Below, piece by piece: positions 1 through 36,588 of a DNA stretch of 42,973 bases (position 1 is the stretch's first letter; the number at the start of each line of letters is the position of its first letter). The position numbers and the translations under genes are program-made. The stretch covers positions 1-42,973 of IMG/VR virus record IMGVR_UViG_3300011626_000001, one strand, 5' to 3'. The notes under the pieces are model-generated. The model made no database searches. It worked only from the letters and a program-made list of their open reading frames with translations, and was not told the origin of the DNA. The stretch comes from a virus (lineage: Duplodnaviria; Heunggongvirae; Uroviricota; Caudoviricetes).

Positions 1-309
1 TGAATTCAGGACTAAAATTTCTTCGTTTCATTGGTGCACCTATATTGTTCTGAGGTGAGCATATCACCTCTGTTCAGGTGGCCAAATTCAGTAAACCACT
101 TCAAGTACATGGATACGAGACGCGAGATGATGCAATGGTGGGCTGACTACATAGACGGAAAGGTTAGCTGAGGATTAGCAATCATTGGCTCTGCGGCTGT
201 GAGATTACTCTATATTAGAAGCGGGACCTTATAATCTTCTCCGCAAAATCATAACATTCGTTCGCACACAGCAGCACAAACAACCATAAAGTTACACACC
301 TTCATGATT

Positions 310-331
310 GCCCGCTTTAAGCGGGCTTTTT
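310..331 (+). terminator. Terminator-like hairpin GCCCGC-TTTAA-GCGGGC followed by T-run; same hairpin family as the array at 35.0-35.5 kb
   Basis: Perfect 6-bp inverted repeat plus T5 read directly; no obvious plus-strand gene upstream, so the terminated transcript is unknown. Confidence 0.4.
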
Positions 332-392
332 CATGCCTGCGGCCTGTTGGACATTTATACTGTACTGCCCCGGGTGACACTCAGCATCCCAT

Positions 393-32283: not shown

Positions 32284-32574
32284 TCAGGCTTCGAAGCTGT
32301 TAGCGCAGCTCGGAGCCTTTTCTTTTCCCAGAATCAGGGCCACTTCCTTCGCTACAGCTTTAGCCAGCTGCGCAGCATCGTCATCAACGATCCCGTATTC
32401 GAGGATGTCTATAGCCATGCTCATCTGGCGGAAAAAGTTCTTCTTCATGCGGCTGACCTGGTATTCAGCGATCCCCAGTTTTTCTGCGAATGTTTTCTGG
32501 CTGATAGATGCCAGCTTGTTCAGCAAGGCCGATTCGATGCGGCGCGCGTTCTTGCTTTGAGTTGCATGTTCCAT
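32284..32574 (-). CDS. cII: Transcriptional activator CII
   Basis: RIESALLNKLA and GIVDDDAAQLAKAVA match lambda CII; position after cro and nutR. Confidence 0.85.
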   Translation of the reverse strand: MEHATQSKNARRIESALLNKLASISQKTFAEKLGIAEYQVSRMKKNFFRQMSMAIDILEYGIVDDDAAQLAKAVAKEVALILGKEKAPSCANSFEA

Positions 32575-32688: not shown

Positions 32689-32904
32689 TCAGGCGGCGGT
32701 ATCGACGCCATTTCCGTATTGCAGCCAGACAGGGTCACATTGCAGAGCTACAGCTATTTCGAAGATCTTCCGTGGGCGCTTCGTGATACCAGCCTCAATC
32801 TGTTGGATTGATTGCTGCTTCACACCTGCCTTAAGCGCCAATTCGGTCTGAGTCATCTTCAGCTCTGCACGTTTCTGCTTGAGGCGCTGGGAGATAGTTT
32901 GCAT
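32689..32904 (-). CDS. cro: Cro-like repressor (71 aa, HTH)
   Basis: Internal start [10 protein letters not shown] preceded by [30 protein letters not shown]; divergent from cI. Confidence 0.7.
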
Positions 32905-33004
32905 ATAGCCTCCTTGACAAACTTTCTTGTATTTTAAATACAAATTACTTTGTTTGTCAATTACAGCTTTTCTTGTGAACATCTCTTTTTTGATGAGGTG
33001 TTAA
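32905..33004. promoter_or_regulatory. OR operator / PR-PRM divergent promoter region
   Basis: Inverted repeats TTGACAAAC...GTTTGTCAA and TTGTATTTtAAATACAA between cro and cI starts. Confidence 0.6.
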
Positions 33005-33646
33005 ATGACAATTGCGGCAAGGGTGCTTTCAAAAAGGACTGAGCTGGGTTTGACTCAGACAGAGCTAGCGGAAAAGGCCGGCACAACGCAGCAGGCGATT
33101 GTCCAGCTTGAGAGCGGTAAAACTAAAAGACCAAGATATCTGCCTGAGCTGGCTAAGGCGTTAAATTGCGACATCCAATGGCTTCTTGATGGATCAGGGG
33201 CAACCTTAGACAGCAATGTGTCTAACCCTAGGGACTACAAGCCGACTGCGCGCTACCCCGTTTTAAGCAAGGTTCAGGCTGGCGCATGGGATGAAGCCTG
33301 TGAACCCTATACGATTAAGGATGTCGATATGTGGCTTGAATCTGACGCACATACGCAAGGAGAGGCTTTCTGGTTGCAGGTGGAAGGCGATTCGATGACT
33401 GCCCCGATTGGCCTCAGTATTCCGGCAGGTACGTTCGTACTGTTCGACACCGGCCGTGAGGCGGTCAATGGAAGCCTGGTCGTGGCAAAGCTTACTGACG
33501 ACAATGAAGCCACATTCAAGAAGCTCATTATCGACGGCAGTCAAAAGTATCTTAAGGGCCTGAACCCTCAATGGCCGATGGTCCCGGTTAACGGGAATTG
33601 CAAGGTTCTTGGCGTGGCGATCGAGACGAAGATGAAGCTCGTTTAA
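33005..33646 (+). CDS. cI: CI-type prophage repressor (HTH + LexA-like S24 autopeptidase domain)
   Basis: N-terminal HTH; C-terminal GDSM serine motif and downstream Lys ([10 protein letters not shown]). Confidence 0.85.
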
Positions 33647-33690
33647 GGCTCAGTGGCCGGAAGAGACTTTCAGCTAATCAGGAGGATGGC

Positions 33691-33849
33691 ATGTCAGTTT
33701 TTGCGAAGATAGCGATTCCGATGTTCTGTATTGCGTTCGCGATGTTCTACCTGGCTCGCAAGAAGCGTGACAAAAACTACCTGATTCCTGGCTTTGTTCT
33801 GTTAGCTGCTGGAGTTGTGAATACGGTGATTGCGATTACTGCAGGTTAG
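33691..33849 (+). CDS. Small two-TM membrane protein (52 aa) cotranscribed with cI
   Basis: AGGAGG SD 7 nt before ATG; two hydrophobic helices separated by RKKRDKNY; flanked by a 15-bp direct repeat. Confidence 0.55.
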   Translation: MSVFAKIAIPMFCIAFAMFYLARKKRDKNYLIPGFVLLAAGVVNTVIAITAG

Positions 33850-33966: not shown

Positions 33967-34962
33967 ATGGAACAACATGACGTTTTTGTGTACACAGGTG
34001 ATATCCACCGTGATGGTTATCTCGATCTTACTAATGCCATAAAAAAACGCAAAAAAGCTCAAGGACTCAGCACTGAGGTTACTTTTTGTGTCGCCACTTA
34101 TGGCGGAGATCCAAATGCAGGCTATCGTATAGGAAGAGCGCTTCAACATAACTATGAGAAAGTGAATCTTTTAGTAGTGGGCCCCTGTAAGAGTGCCGGG
34201 ACTTTGATAGCGATTGCAGCTGATAAGCTTATCATTGGAGACATGGGTGAGCTTGGCCCCCTTGATATACAGCTTAAAAAAAATGACGAAATTGGCGAGA
34301 TGAGTTCAGGCCTGGTCATAATGACGGCCTTAGATGCGTTAAAAGATCGCTCTATTTCGACGTTCAATTCTCATCTGGTTAAGATAAGATACGAAAACCA
34401 GATAAGTACGAAGATGTCAGCTGACATTGCTGCGAAGTTAACTGAGGCGTTAGTTGCTCCCATGGCTGCTCAGATAGATCCAATTAAACTTGGAGAGCAT
34501 CAACGAGCTATGAGCATTGCCATAACCTATGGGCAGCGACTCAGTGACAAATCTAAGTGTTTGAAGGATGGAGCTTTATTTAAATTAATTGCCTCTTATC
34601 CTTCACATGGTTTTGTGATAGATCGCAAAGAGGCTCGCGAACTTTTTCACCATGTTGAAAGTCCAACTGGTTACGCTGAAGCACTTTACGAGATTTTTTA
34701 TCAAAAAATTCACGAGGGTGAAATTCAACCTTACGGTAAACCGAAGGTGCTCGATTTCACTATCGATCCTGAAACAACTGAGAATAATGGAGATGCCAAT
34801 GCACAATCACCCGGAGATGGAGGTACTGAACAAGATGATTCAGGACCAAATCCAGGAGAGTCAAGATCTGGCAAAGCGAGCAGAGCAAAATCTAAACGAT
34901 CTGAAGCGTCAACTGGAGCCCTACCAGTTCAGCAGCCCAATGACATACCGCCTCCAGAGTGA
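33967..34962 (+). CDS. ClpP/S49-fold (SDH-type) serine peptidase-like protein with charged low-complexity C-terminal tail (331 aa)
   Basis: Segment GPCKSAGTLIAIAADKLIIGDMGELGPLDIQ resembles the Ser-containing core of ClpP/SppA-fold peptidases; no signal peptide; AT-rich gene. Confidence 0.55.
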   Translation: MEQHDVFVYTGDIHRDGYLDLTNAIKKRKKAQGLSTEVTFCVATYGGDPNAGYRIGRALQHNYEKVNLLVVGPCKSAGTLIAIAADKLIIGDMGELGPLDIQLKKNDEIGEMSSGLVIMTALDALKDRSISTFNSHLVKIRYENQISTKMSADIAAKLTEALVAPMAAQIDPIKLGEHQRAMSIAITYGQRLSDKSKCLKDGALFKLIASYPSHGFVIDRKEARELFHHVESPTGYAEALYEIFYQKIHEGEIQPYGKPKVLDFTIDPETTENNGDANAQSPGDGGTEQDDSGPNPGESRSGKASRAKSKRSEASTGALPVQQPNDIPPPE

Positions 34963-34984
34963 TCTCTCACCATTTTAAGTAAAG

Positions 34985-35008
34985 CCCGGCCACCGCGCCG
35001 GGTTTTTT
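34985..35008 (+). terminator. Rho-independent terminator (CCCGGC-CACCGC-GCCGGG + T6) ending the cI cargo operon
   Basis: Hairpin and T-run read directly, 23 nt after the peptidase-like stop. Confidence 0.6.
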
Positions 35009-35144
35009 ATACCCGCCACACCAATAGCCCGCCATTGAGCTGGCTTTTTCATGCTGCTCTAAAGTTATCAGTTATGCTGCCGTTAACCTCTTTGCTCTGG
35101 AAAACAGTAGTACCAATAACGACAATATGAAATCAAGCCGGTTG

Positions 35145-35168
35145 GCCCGCTATGCGCGGGCTTTTTTT
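35145..35168 (+). terminator. Terminator hairpin GCCCGC-TATGC-GCGGGC + T7
   Basis: Read directly; member of a repeated hairpin family. Confidence 0.5.
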
Positions 35169-35312
35169 CTTTCAATACATAAACTAACGTTATCCTGACG
35201 AGTAAAATTACTACGCTATATTTCACAGCAACGTAGCGGCAGTAGCCTATGCTTTGAAAGCACATTATTTGCTGTGTGCGATGGCTTTCCCCATTGGAAT
35301 TTGTGTCTTCTT

Positions 35313-35336
35313 GCCCGCCATAGAGCGGGCTTTTTT
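35313..35336 (+). terminator. Terminator hairpin GCCCGC-CATAGA-GCGGGC + T6
   Basis: Read directly; member of a repeated hairpin family. Confidence 0.5.
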
Positions 35337-35500
35337 AAGCCAACTCCCGCTGCCCAGAACAATCCTAACTTCATGACTTGTAGGACCATTCCCACATCGC
35401 AAGAACTCACACACTCCTAACCTTTAATGGCTACACGCATACAGGATGTTGCGCGTTAGCTGTACGAGATTTGCAGGTTAACCCTGTGCTGAATCACTTT

Positions 35501-35524
35501 GCCCGCCACTGAGCGGGCTTTTTT
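35501..35524 (+). terminator. Terminator hairpin GCCCGC-CACTGA-GCGGGC + T6
   Basis: Read directly; member of a repeated hairpin family. Confidence 0.5.
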
Positions 35525-35559: not shown

Positions 35560-35650
35560 CTTTGAAAACAAAGCTTTTTGTATTTCTCGCCTTTAATTAC
35601 AATATTTATTGTTTACAGTATACAAACTTTATTGTAATTTTACTCCATCA
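35560..35650 (+). promoter_or_regulatory. Candidate OL/PL operator-promoter region
   Basis: AT-rich; contains TTGTAT / ATACAA half-site-like motifs shared with OR, and TTACAAT...ATTGTAA inverted repeats; lies upstream of nutL and N. Confidence 0.45.
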
Positions 35651-35681
35651 GCAGGACGCAGTACCCAACAGGATGTTGGAT

Positions 35682-35728
35682 CGCTCTTTAACATTGATGG
35701 GGTTTATTTCTCCCGCCCTTGTGGGAGA
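35682..35728 (+). promoter_or_regulatory. nutL: boxA (CGCTCTTTA) plus boxB hairpin (TCTCCC-GCCCTTGT-GGGAGA)
   Basis: Consensus boxA read directly; hairpin loop differs by one base from the nutR boxB loop. Confidence 0.6.
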
Positions 35729-35919: not shown

Positions 35920-36168
35920 ATGTTTGCAGCTACCAACAGCGTCAGCCGTCGCTACCTCAAGCGTGGCGAACTGATCGCAAAACGCCGTGCAGAAGCGGCA
36001 GAAGGTAAAGCCCGCGTTGATGTCAGTGCTGAGCGAGTTTCACGCGCTGTATCTGCACCGAGCCTTCGCGAAAAGCACGAAGATGGCGCCATGTGCCTGC
36101 CCGCCATAGCGATTTACAGCGCCGGGCATCGCAAGGTTCGCAAAGACGCGACGCACATCGTTAAATAA
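35920..36168 (+). CDS. N: Antitermination protein N (P22 gp24-like, 82 aa)
   Basis: N-terminal arginine-rich motif; C-terminal LPAIAIYSAGHRKVRK resembles the P22 gene 24 C-terminus as I recall it; GGAGG SD; downstream of nutL. Confidence 0.7.
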   Translation: MFAATNSVSRRYLKRGELIAKRRAEAAEGKARVDVSAERVSRAVSAPSLREKHEDGAMCLPAIAIYSAGHRKVRKDATHIVK

Positions 36169-36261
36169 ACGAAGTGCTGAAAAGGTTATTAACTAATTCT
36201 GTATTTGCATAATCAGCCATTTTTTCTAGGCTTAAAAAGTAACTTAAGCCCAGGAGGAAAT

Positions 36262-36588
36262 ATGTTAGAGCAGTACAAAAAATGCATCGAAGCGTGTTAC
36301 CTGTGTGCAGCTGCTTGCGATAACTGTGCGGCATCGTGCCTTGAAGAAGAGAACCTGGAAATGATGCGCCAGTGCATCAAAATGGATATGCAATGCGCAA
36401 ACATTTGCCGACTCGCTGCTCAGTTTATGGCTTTGAAAAGTGAGTCAGCCAACGAAATTTGTCAGCTGTGCGCAGATGTTTGCCAGAAGTGCGGTGATGA
36501 ATGTGGTCAGCATAACCATGACCACTGTCAGGAATGTTCCAAAGCCTGTCATCACTGTGCAGAGCAGTGCCGCAAGATGGCCGCTTGA
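36262..36588 (+). CDS. Cysteine-rich four-helix-bundle-type metal-binding protein (about 18 Cys in 108 aa)
   Basis: Repeated CxxxC spacing throughout; AGGAGG SD; own AT-rich upstream region and terminator. Confidence 0.55.
   Translation: MLEQYKKCIEACYLCAAACDNCAASCLEEENLEMMRQCIKMDMQCANICRLAAQFMALKSESANEICQLCADVCQKCGDECGQHNHDHCQECSKACHHCAEQCRKMAA

Follow-up and report, generated by a model that had tools for sequence, protein, structure and literature searches.

A run of terminator hairpins in a lambdoid Pantoea prophage closes non-coding units that vary in number and order among related prophages

Introduction

The region between the repressor operon and the left early promoter (PL) of a lambdoid Pantoea prophage contains a run of five hairpins followed by T-runs, and three of these close short non-coding units that recur, in differing number and order, in other Pantoea and Mixta prophages. 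The prophage takes up the whole of the window, by which we mean the entire stretch of DNA analysed here (42,973 nucleotides (nt), positions 1 to 42,973 of IMG/VR virus record IMGVR_UViG_3300011626_000001). The five hairpin/T-run elements lie on the + strand at 34984-35524, and all are oriented like the repressor gene cI. Judged from sequence comparison, there is about an even chance that the three units – referred to as U1, U2, and U3 – are moron-like small-RNA (sRNA) cassettes shuffled through their common terminators.

The position downstream of a lambdoid repressor is a slot for lysogenic conversion, occupied by rexAB in lambda, by nun in HK022, and by bstA in BTP1. Phage morons, reportedly described by Juhala and Hendrix, are autonomous promoter–gene–terminator units that are inserted between lambdoid genes and expressed from the prophage. 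The units described here are like morons in being accessory among related prophages, in each having a terminator of its own, and in lying in the slot downstream of the repressor. Unlike morons, they carry no coding payload and measure just 120-190 nt, and several unrelated ones are stacked; the shared terminators appear to act as recombination joints, and promoters are plausible only for U2 and for U4, a unit found in related loci.

Results and Discussion

Tandem terminators and three non-coding units

The first hairpin, hp1 (34984-35008, + strand; GCCCGGCCACCGCGCCGGG followed by T6), has a CCCGGC/GCCGGG stem and begins 22 nt past the stop codon of the cargo gene that follows cI; the same stem was also listed, on the - strand, by the terminator scan. 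The second, hp2 (35027-35049, + strand; GCCCGCCATTGAGCTGGC followed by T5), is degenerate, with one mismatch in its GCCCGC/GCTGGC stem, and its counterpart in the related loci L007 and L010 is perfect (GCCCGCCACTGAGCGGGC followed by T6). Hp3 (35145-35168), hp4 (35313-35336), and hp5 (35501-35524) follow on the + strand. Hp1, hp3, hp4, and hp5 have the build of intrinsic terminators, with 6-7 GC pairs, a loop of 5-6 nt, and T6-7. Of the four matches to GCCCGC-N3-10-GCGGGCTTTT in the 43-kb window, three lie in the array and the fourth at 310-330; each has a T-run, on one strand only, and 100 shuffled versions gave no match. The likeness between hairpin copies extends over about 31 nt (TTGCCCGCCAYWGAGCGGGCTTTTTTGTGCC).

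A preliminary description of the region, made from the letters alone, had listed five hairpins here including a degenerate second copy, together with an extra copy at 310-331. All five are indeed present on the + strand, and the extra copy has the same extended shape (...GCGGGCTTTTTCATGCCTGC). The start-to-start distances are 42, 117, 169, and 188 nt, which does not quite agree with the rough spacing of 150-180 bp that it gave.

Hp1 is the intrinsic terminator of the cI-cargo operon, and hp2, which relatives have in intact form, is a back-up terminator that has decayed here. In those relatives hp1 and hp2 form a 67-nt block that moves as one, and both the block and hp1 itself are kept at 83-89% identity behind differing cargo genes. 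The two are tandem terminators of the operon rather than cassette ends, because L007 matches the window through both of them, with hp2 perfect there; the interval between them has no room for a gene.

The remaining hairpins are the 3′ ends of three unrelated non-coding units on the + strand. U1 (35050-35168, 118-119 nt) is closed by hp3, U2 (35169-35336, 168 nt) by hp4, and U3 (35337-35524, 188 nt) by hp5. The segments between the hairpins had been noted as dissimilar to each other, and they do fall into separate BLAST clusters with no conserved open reading frame (ORF).

The hairpin sequence itself is a strong terminator of a generic kind that has arisen convergently. As an exact 23-mer, GCCCGCCAYWGAGCGGGCTTTTT is present in at least 120 viral contigs, mostly as single terminators, and in at least 120 stretches of species-representative genomes, including those of Pseudomonas, Burkholderiales, Comamonas, Acinetobacter, and Halomonas; among the viral matches listed, 160 hairpin instances have 84 different upstream contexts. 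Because it is so widespread in unrelated contexts, as a terminator of many Proteobacteria, the 23-mer is unsuitable as a family marker and was rejected as one. What sets this locus apart is that such terminators are stacked on units which are both conserved and shuffled. One match with five copies, L152 7020-7860 (CALVWO010000008.1, a metagenome-assembled genome labelled Clostridia), consists of five tandem units of ~184 nt, each ending in a GCCCGCCACAGAGCGGGC hairpin nested within a longer palindrome, and lies directly after an apparent tRNA gene. It was set aside as an unrelated tandem repeat, reminiscent of tyrT/RtT-type repeats.

The same units recur in different orders

Relatives were gathered by exact-protein look-ups, DNA word scans, and a scan with the N-type antiterminator protein, which gave about 20 distinct Pantoea/Mixta loci (among them L217, from Pantoea latae AS1, and L170, from Mixta sp.). 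Loci with different repressor, cargo, and N genes carry the same units – U1, U1′, U2, U3, U4, U4v, and U5 – with copies that are 79-100% identical across loci, and both the number of units (1-6) and their order vary. The window has U1-U2-U3, as against U1-U2-U1′-U4 in L007, U1-U2-U3-U5 in L013/L018, U2-U3-U1′-U4v in L014/16/17, U1′-U1-U2-U3-U4-U5 in L217, U2-U3-U5-U4 in L258, U2-U4 in L261, U2-U1-U4 in L264, and U2-U4v in L267; L073 has U3 only, and L259 only a U4v-like unit. Homologues of U1 at 86-100% identity are found in L007, L015/L217, L018, and L264, and in the last of these U1 is positioned after U2, not before it. U3 is represented by 19 copies at 91-100% identity.

The comparison with L007 is particularly direct. 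It encodes the same cargo protein as the window but has a different cI, cro, and N, and the two are near-identical through hp1, hp2, U1 (about 92%), and U2 (97%) up to the T-run of hp4, directly after which they are unrelated; beyond hp4, L007 has two other terminator-capped units and then its own PL. The array of L217 again lies behind a cI-cargo operon, where the cargo is a PIN-domain gene and a 238-amino-acid (aa) gene. When 13 arrays were compared pairwise, 160 of the 256 internal ends of homology blocks lay no more than 10 nt from a hairpin, compared with 56 expected from random placement and a maximum of 87 in 1000 randomisations; this enrichment is descriptive rather than a formal test, because the array pairs are not independent.

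The array is accessory

Terminators on the + strand were counted in the 1.7 kb upstream of N at 37 loci with N relatives. There are none at 13 loci, one at 14, two at 2, and three or more at 8, such that 27 of the 37 have one terminator at most. The array is absent or reduced at these 27 loci and its content varies in the rest, a presence/absence pattern of the moron type. At L274, N is 98% identical to that of the window and there is no array, with homology to the window beginning only at the PL transcript. The array is therefore accessory and the extra hairpins are not needed to insulate PL, which agrees with the earlier suggestion that a single terminator would suffice.

The units are non-coding

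No ORF is conserved across the variants of any unit, which speaks against eroded coding cargo. The longest open stretches do not stop at the hairpins, and from one variant to the next they are found in another frame or on the other strand; a 31-codon frame in U2, from 35281, passes through the terminator, and its C-terminus changes with the downstream neighbour. Type I toxin-antitoxin repeats of the Ibs/Sib, Ldr/Rdl, or Zor/Orz kind were rejected on the same ground, there being no small ORF conserved across variants. A CRISPR array was also rejected, as the segments are about 90-165 nt long and conserved between prophages, and there are no cas genes among the ORFs examined. An integron cassette array was rejected because the cassette ends are terminators with T-runs, and there is no intI among the genes flanking the array.

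Neither tRNA nor transfer-messenger RNA genes were found. Near and distant searches of 50,697 phage records and 72,556 plasmids matched the PL/nutL part only, and nothing in them resembles the array units at the DNA level. A search of Escherichia coli genomes gave a sole array-unit match, a non-coding pair of U3- and U5-like units in two isolates. Contig ends that coincide with hairpins in Logan assemblies were rejected as indicators of transcript ends because repeats break assemblies.

Conservation within the units

The promoter scan places a promoter-like site in U2, with CTGACG at 35195-35200, a 16-nt spacer, and TATATT at 35217-35222. From this site an RNA of about 105-108 nt is predicted, ending at hp4 and containing an internal 6-bp hairpin at 35279-35296 and, ahead of the terminator hairpin, the U-rich stretch AAUUUGUGUCUUCUU, with a U6 tail after it. 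U2 thus has the build of an Hfq-type sRNA in its predicted length, intrinsic terminator, U tail, and U-rich stretch. The -10 position reads TATNTT (TATATT, TATGTT, TATCTT) in seven of eight variants. Variation in the predicted RNA is seen in its 5′ part; the 3′ part changes little and comprises the GU-rich UUUGCUGUGUGCGAUGG, the 6-bp hairpin, and the U-rich stretch before the terminator. Changes in the predicted stems are one-sided and wobble-compatible only.

The U4 family has a more marked pattern. The block AACCGCTTACGCTTGCA, which ends in a -35-like TTGCA (the hexamer being TTGCAY), is almost invariant, all 16 columns of the spacer after it vary, and the -10 keeps T-A-...-T fixed (TACTAT, TATTAT, TAACCT, TAACAT). 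At least three versions of the body follow, and conservation resumes in the last 45 nt, which include the terminator. As read from the alignment, this is the signature of a putative sigma-70 promoter with an RNA behind it whose body varies and whose 3′ scaffold is constant. In U4v, a 5-bp stem, CUGGC/GCCAG, has a position that by eye is G-C, then G.U, then A-U between variants.

In U3, a CA-rich patch that varies (about 35400-35420) separates a conserved 5′ block from a conserved 3′ scaffold, with UU(U) ahead of the stem; the same conserved–variable–conserved layout is seen in a 76.6% identical homologue in E. coli BY63/BY68. Alternative sigma-factor promoters (sigma-E and sigma-32) were looked for in U3 by eye, and were dropped as unconvincing.

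Several further features of the units were observed. In E. coli BY63, a U3-like unit followed by a U5-like unit (L268 3985-4290; NZ_CP090570.1, about 2081900-2082230) lies in unannotated DNA at the edge of a prophage remnant, between a truncated ORF beside yecD and a hypothetical gene; the pair is present in 2 of 5426 E. coli genomes and has no other E. coli occurrence. The reverse complement of U3 over 35400-35524 has a predicted folding energy of -43.2 kcal/mol, compared to -34.1 kcal/mol for the + strand (z = -3.3), and a minus-strand RNA or a DNA-level palindrome in 35378-35524 is possible. U3 (35441-35451) and the nutL leader (35668-35678) share the 11-mer ACAGGATGTTG, which forms a small GGA-loop hairpin in both and, in the nutL copy, immediately precedes boxA; a match of this length may be expected by chance. 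Finally, U1 (35056-35064) and U1′ (L007 7380-7388) both open with GCTCTAAAG directly after the preceding terminator, a sequence that loosely resembles the start of boxA (TGCTCTTTAA).

A further unit at the left end

The extra hairpin copy belongs to a unit at 230-335 (+ strand), directly downstream of what by eye looks like the 3′ end of an integrase gene, apparently all of that gene that the left end of the window carries, and about 35 kb from the array. TATAAT lies at 230-235, followed by a CA-rich body and then by the hairpin GCCCGCTTTAAGCGGGC and T5 at 310-331, with UU(U) ahead of the stem; the minimum free energy (MFE) z-score of the unit is -3.65. In the related loci L269-L272, the CA-rich core (CGCACACAGCAGCACAAACAACC...ACACACC) is invariant and the 5′ part varies.

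Pairing of this core with the GU-rich R1 region of GcvB, computed with the E. coli sequence and not that of Pantoea, is predicted at -29.3 kcal/mol, a value reached or surpassed by 1 of 300 shuffles; the left-end unit is alone in this, as pairing of U1-U4 with E. coli GcvB R1 was not above that of shuffles. The core also has a perfect 12-nt complement in the conserved GU-rich stretch of U2 (35270-35281). Otherwise, the units are complementary to other parts of the prophage only in chance-level 11-12-mers, and in all-against-all duplexes of the units only U2 with the left-end unit emerged; its z of -2.8 is not significant once the 21 tests are allowed for. These predictions are a lead toward the left-end unit possibly acting as an AgvB-like decoy for GcvB.

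Explanations for the array

In the small-RNA cassette reading, hp1 and hp2 would end the lysogenic cI-cargo operon, and U1, U2, and U3 would have been inserted behind them, in the lysogenic-conversion slot before the left operators (OL) and PL. In the lysogen, where PL is repressed, each cassette would be transcribed autonomously as a short unit, giving rise to an RNA of about 80-150 nt. The end of this RNA – a GC-rich hairpin with a U6-7 tail and a preceding U-rich stretch – would correspond to the build of Hfq-type base-pairing RNAs, and the RNA may be Hfq-dependent and regulatory. With the ~30 nt shared at the cassette ends (TTGCCCGCCAYWGAGCGGGCTTTTTTGTGCC) serving as short homology, Red/RecT-type or host recombination between prophages that are resident or co-infect the cell could insert, remove, and permute cassettes. 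RecT and a DUF3799 nuclease are both encoded by this phage, and Red/RecT-type systems are known to recombine short, diverged homologies, reportedly from work by Martinsohn in 2008 and De Paepe in 2014.

Several results weigh against such cassettes. Covariance-model searches matched no Rfam family: the whole window was run at the gathering threshold, and E-value thresholds were used for the array, the left end, and four relatives; the sub-threshold scores (Trp leader, rseX, RyhB, and, on the minus strand, STnc370) are driven by the terminators. The promoter scan reported the U2 site alone among the units, with promoter-like sites no more numerous than in shuffled sequence. No convincing sigma-70 promoter was found for U1, U1′, U3, or U5, and the U2 variant in L258 has TTTCTT at the -10 position. 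RNAalifold found no compensatory double changes (0) in U2 and U3, with a slightly unfavourable covariation term, and covariation in these units, on both strands, was put aside as uninformative. The MFE z-scores of the array units are ordinary, and U3 folds more stably as the minus strand. The high identity among unit copies could come from recent spread and not from selection, and the exact-word seeds used to find relatives bias the sample towards close copies, limiting its diversity.

Short terminated transcripts had been suggested from the outset, and the recurrence of the units, the lack of a frame, and the U2 and U4 hexamers favour them; the suggestion does not extend to hp1 and hp2, which are not cassette ends, and promoter prediction upstream of the hairpins, which picks out the U2 site, leaves none evident for U1 and U3. 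A more ambitious version, which we regard as doubtful, is that Pantoea/Mixta prophages hold a combinatorial library of regulatory-RNA cassettes in the repressor–PL slot, with the terminator as the joint and the left-end cassette as a GcvB decoy that pairs with U2. The members of this library would be independent sRNA or sponge genes in the lysogen, swapped as in an integron though without a dedicated integrase.

The array could instead be a terminator stack in which the hairpins serve only to stop transcription from the repressor promoter PRM and the cargo from entering OL/PL and N, the DNA between them being functionless filler. All of the hairpins are oriented like the cI operon and lie directly upstream of OL, hp1 and hp2 are a clear tandem pair with no space for a gene, and promoters are not above chance, as such an insulator would have it. 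We nonetheless think it unlikely, as 27 of the 37 related loci manage with no terminator or one, and L274 with none; the supposed filler is conserved and modular, with the same units in differing orders, and has patterned conservation in U4, U2, and the left-end unit; and such units also occur where there is no PL to protect, at 230-335 of the window and at the edge of the E. coli BY63 island. Neutral recombination scars, in which repeated exchange, illegitimate or by short homology, at generic GC-rich terminators stitched together functionless non-coding pieces from many phages, would account for the concentration of breakpoints at hairpins and for a hairpin that is a generic terminator across Proteobacteria, and CUS-3 is among the lambdoid phages with annotated 'boundary sequence' features. 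Such scars leave unexplained why pieces of 120-190 nt stay intact at 80-100% identity in many contexts and why promoter-like hexamers are fixed beside a drifting spacer, and no piece is recognisable as a gene fragment; we consider them rather improbable. Taken together, the insulator and the neutral scars carry a substantial likelihood, short of an even one.

The preliminary description also offered successive decayed cargo genes that left only their terminators, each unit then being an eroded protein-coding moron. The slot does carry differing protein cargo (an SDH-type protease here, and PIN-domain and 238-aa genes in P. latae), but this explanation has become very improbable: the segments recur at 80-100% identity in different orders, a result that independent erosion would not yield in many prophages; no frame is conserved, even in part, with open stretches crossing the hairpins and switching strand or frame; and similarity to the array units is absent from phages and plasmids and confined in E. 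coli to the non-coding U3/U5-like pair. It is likewise very improbable that a generic genome-wide repeat, such as a repetitive extragenic palindrome or bacterial interspersed mosaic element (REP/BIME) or a miniature inverted-repeat transposable element (MITE)-like sequence, clusters here by chance. Widespread as the exact hairpin 23-mer is, its occurrences are single and in unrelated contexts, and their 84 upstream contexts fit convergent intrinsic terminators; the T-run is on one strand only in every copy, and the motif is restricted in the window to the array and one other sRNA-like unit.

If the units are transcribed, the repressor–PL slot, best known for protein-coding exclusion and defence genes, would also host regulatory-RNA cargo, and shared terminators serving as short homologies would offer a concrete route for the exchange of regulators between prophages. 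The candidate set – U2, U4/U4v, and the left-end CA-rich RNA – is small and testable. Even without transcription, the locus remains a clear demonstration that phage-genome mosaicism has its joints at terminators.

Relationship to known systems

Boundary or linker sequences in mosaic lambdoid genomes were reportedly described by Clark and colleagues in 2001 for HK620, and are annotated as 'bsq' in CUS-3. The hairpins are similar to them in being short conserved sequences at module borders and sites of phage exchange; they differ in that the linker is a functional-looking terminator that is present 3-6 times within 1 kb, and that the modules are tiny non-coding units, not gene blocks. Clustered multi-copy sRNA loci such as OmrA/B, PrrF1/2, LhrC1-5, and Qrr consist of paralogous siblings. 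The units described here are likewise arranged head to tail with no genes between them, but U1, U2, and U3 are mutually unrelated except for the terminator.

The closest parallels are prophage-borne sRNAs of pathogenic E. coli. AgvB and AsxR are anti-sRNAs of 51-60 nt from prophages of enterohaemorrhagic E. coli (EHEC), located at the PR′/Q-late moron site (Tree et al. 2014, PMC4104026), and the Pas sRNAs of enteropathogenic E. coli (EPEC) are also prophage-borne and occupy the PR′/Q late-region slot (bioRxiv 10.64898/2026.05.13.724894). The array units resemble these in the short prophage-borne RNA that is predicted, the Rho-independent terminator, the conserved position in lambdoid prophages, and the conserved 3′ part with a variable 5′ part or body (U4/U4v and the left-end unit), and the left-end CA-rich core could, as modelled, pair with GcvB R1 as AgvB does. 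They differ from AgvB and AsxR in lying between cI and PL, in belonging to another host genus, and in being 2-3 times longer. Membership of the AgvB and AsxR families (RF02702/RF02703) was rejected, given the lack of an Rfam match even at E = 10 and the other genomic position. Our search of the literature found nothing relevant on sRNAs in the cI–PL slot or in Pantoea prophages; if the units are sRNA genes, the EHEC/EPEC picture would be broadened to include plant- and environment-associated Erwiniaceae as well as a second lambdoid hot spot.

Prophage setting and flanking genes

The gene order of the prophage is reversed relative to the usual drawing of lambda. The genes cII (32284-32574) and cro (about 32689-32982) are on the minus strand, and the right operator region OR lies between cro and cI. 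The repressor gene (33005-33646, + strand) encodes a cI-type protein with a helix-turn-helix domain and an S24 peptidase domain (Pfam PF01381 and PF00717; PHROG 4), and is the first gene of the lysogenic operon that precedes the array. It is followed by a 52-aa ORF at about 33690-33849, and then by the cargo gene (33967-34962, + strand), which encodes a 331-aa serine protease with an SDH/ClpP fold. This protein matches PF01972 at 3.8e-7 (29.9 bits, under the Pfam cut-off of 31.3 bits) and phrog_21683, of unknown function, at 1e-158, and is named in source records from Pantoea and Cronobacter as 'SDH family Clp fold serine proteinase / SppA'. The protease and the 52-aa ORF are thus the cargo of the repressor operon, with expression predicted in the lysogen; the identical protease sits behind a different repressor in L007, and it is a candidate exclusion or defence gene.

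The array was described from the start as lying between the cargo locus and OL/PL, and both flanks bear this out, with cI and the protease upstream and OL, PL, boxA, and N downstream. Three OL operators are located on the + strand at 35567-35581, 35598-35612, and 35621-35635; their pattern has eight matches compared to 1.9 expected, and the same motif is found in OR, at 32916-32976. PL was not called by the promoter scan, and its placement (-35 TTTACA, 35612-35617; -10 TAATTT, 35635-35640; + strand) follows from its position among the OL operators. The boxA of nutL (35682-35693, + strand; CGCTCTTTAACA) was read from the sequence, and this boxA/nutL part shares homology with nutL regions in Sf6, in HK620-type phages, and in others. 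The N-type antiterminator gene (35920-36168, + strand) matches PF25694 at 7.9e-11, and its product is identical to WP_312158075.1 of Pantoea piersonii.

Directly after N, an ORF at 36205-36588 has a match to cysteine-rich DUF326 repeats (PF03860, 1.5e-10), which is unusual for a slot that normally holds early-left accessory genes. Among the relatives, L016 has two adjacent RtT RNA matches at 11412-11715, near a contig end, with scores of 47 and 46 bits (gathering threshold 45), and these may mark integration beside a tyrT-type tRNA locus.

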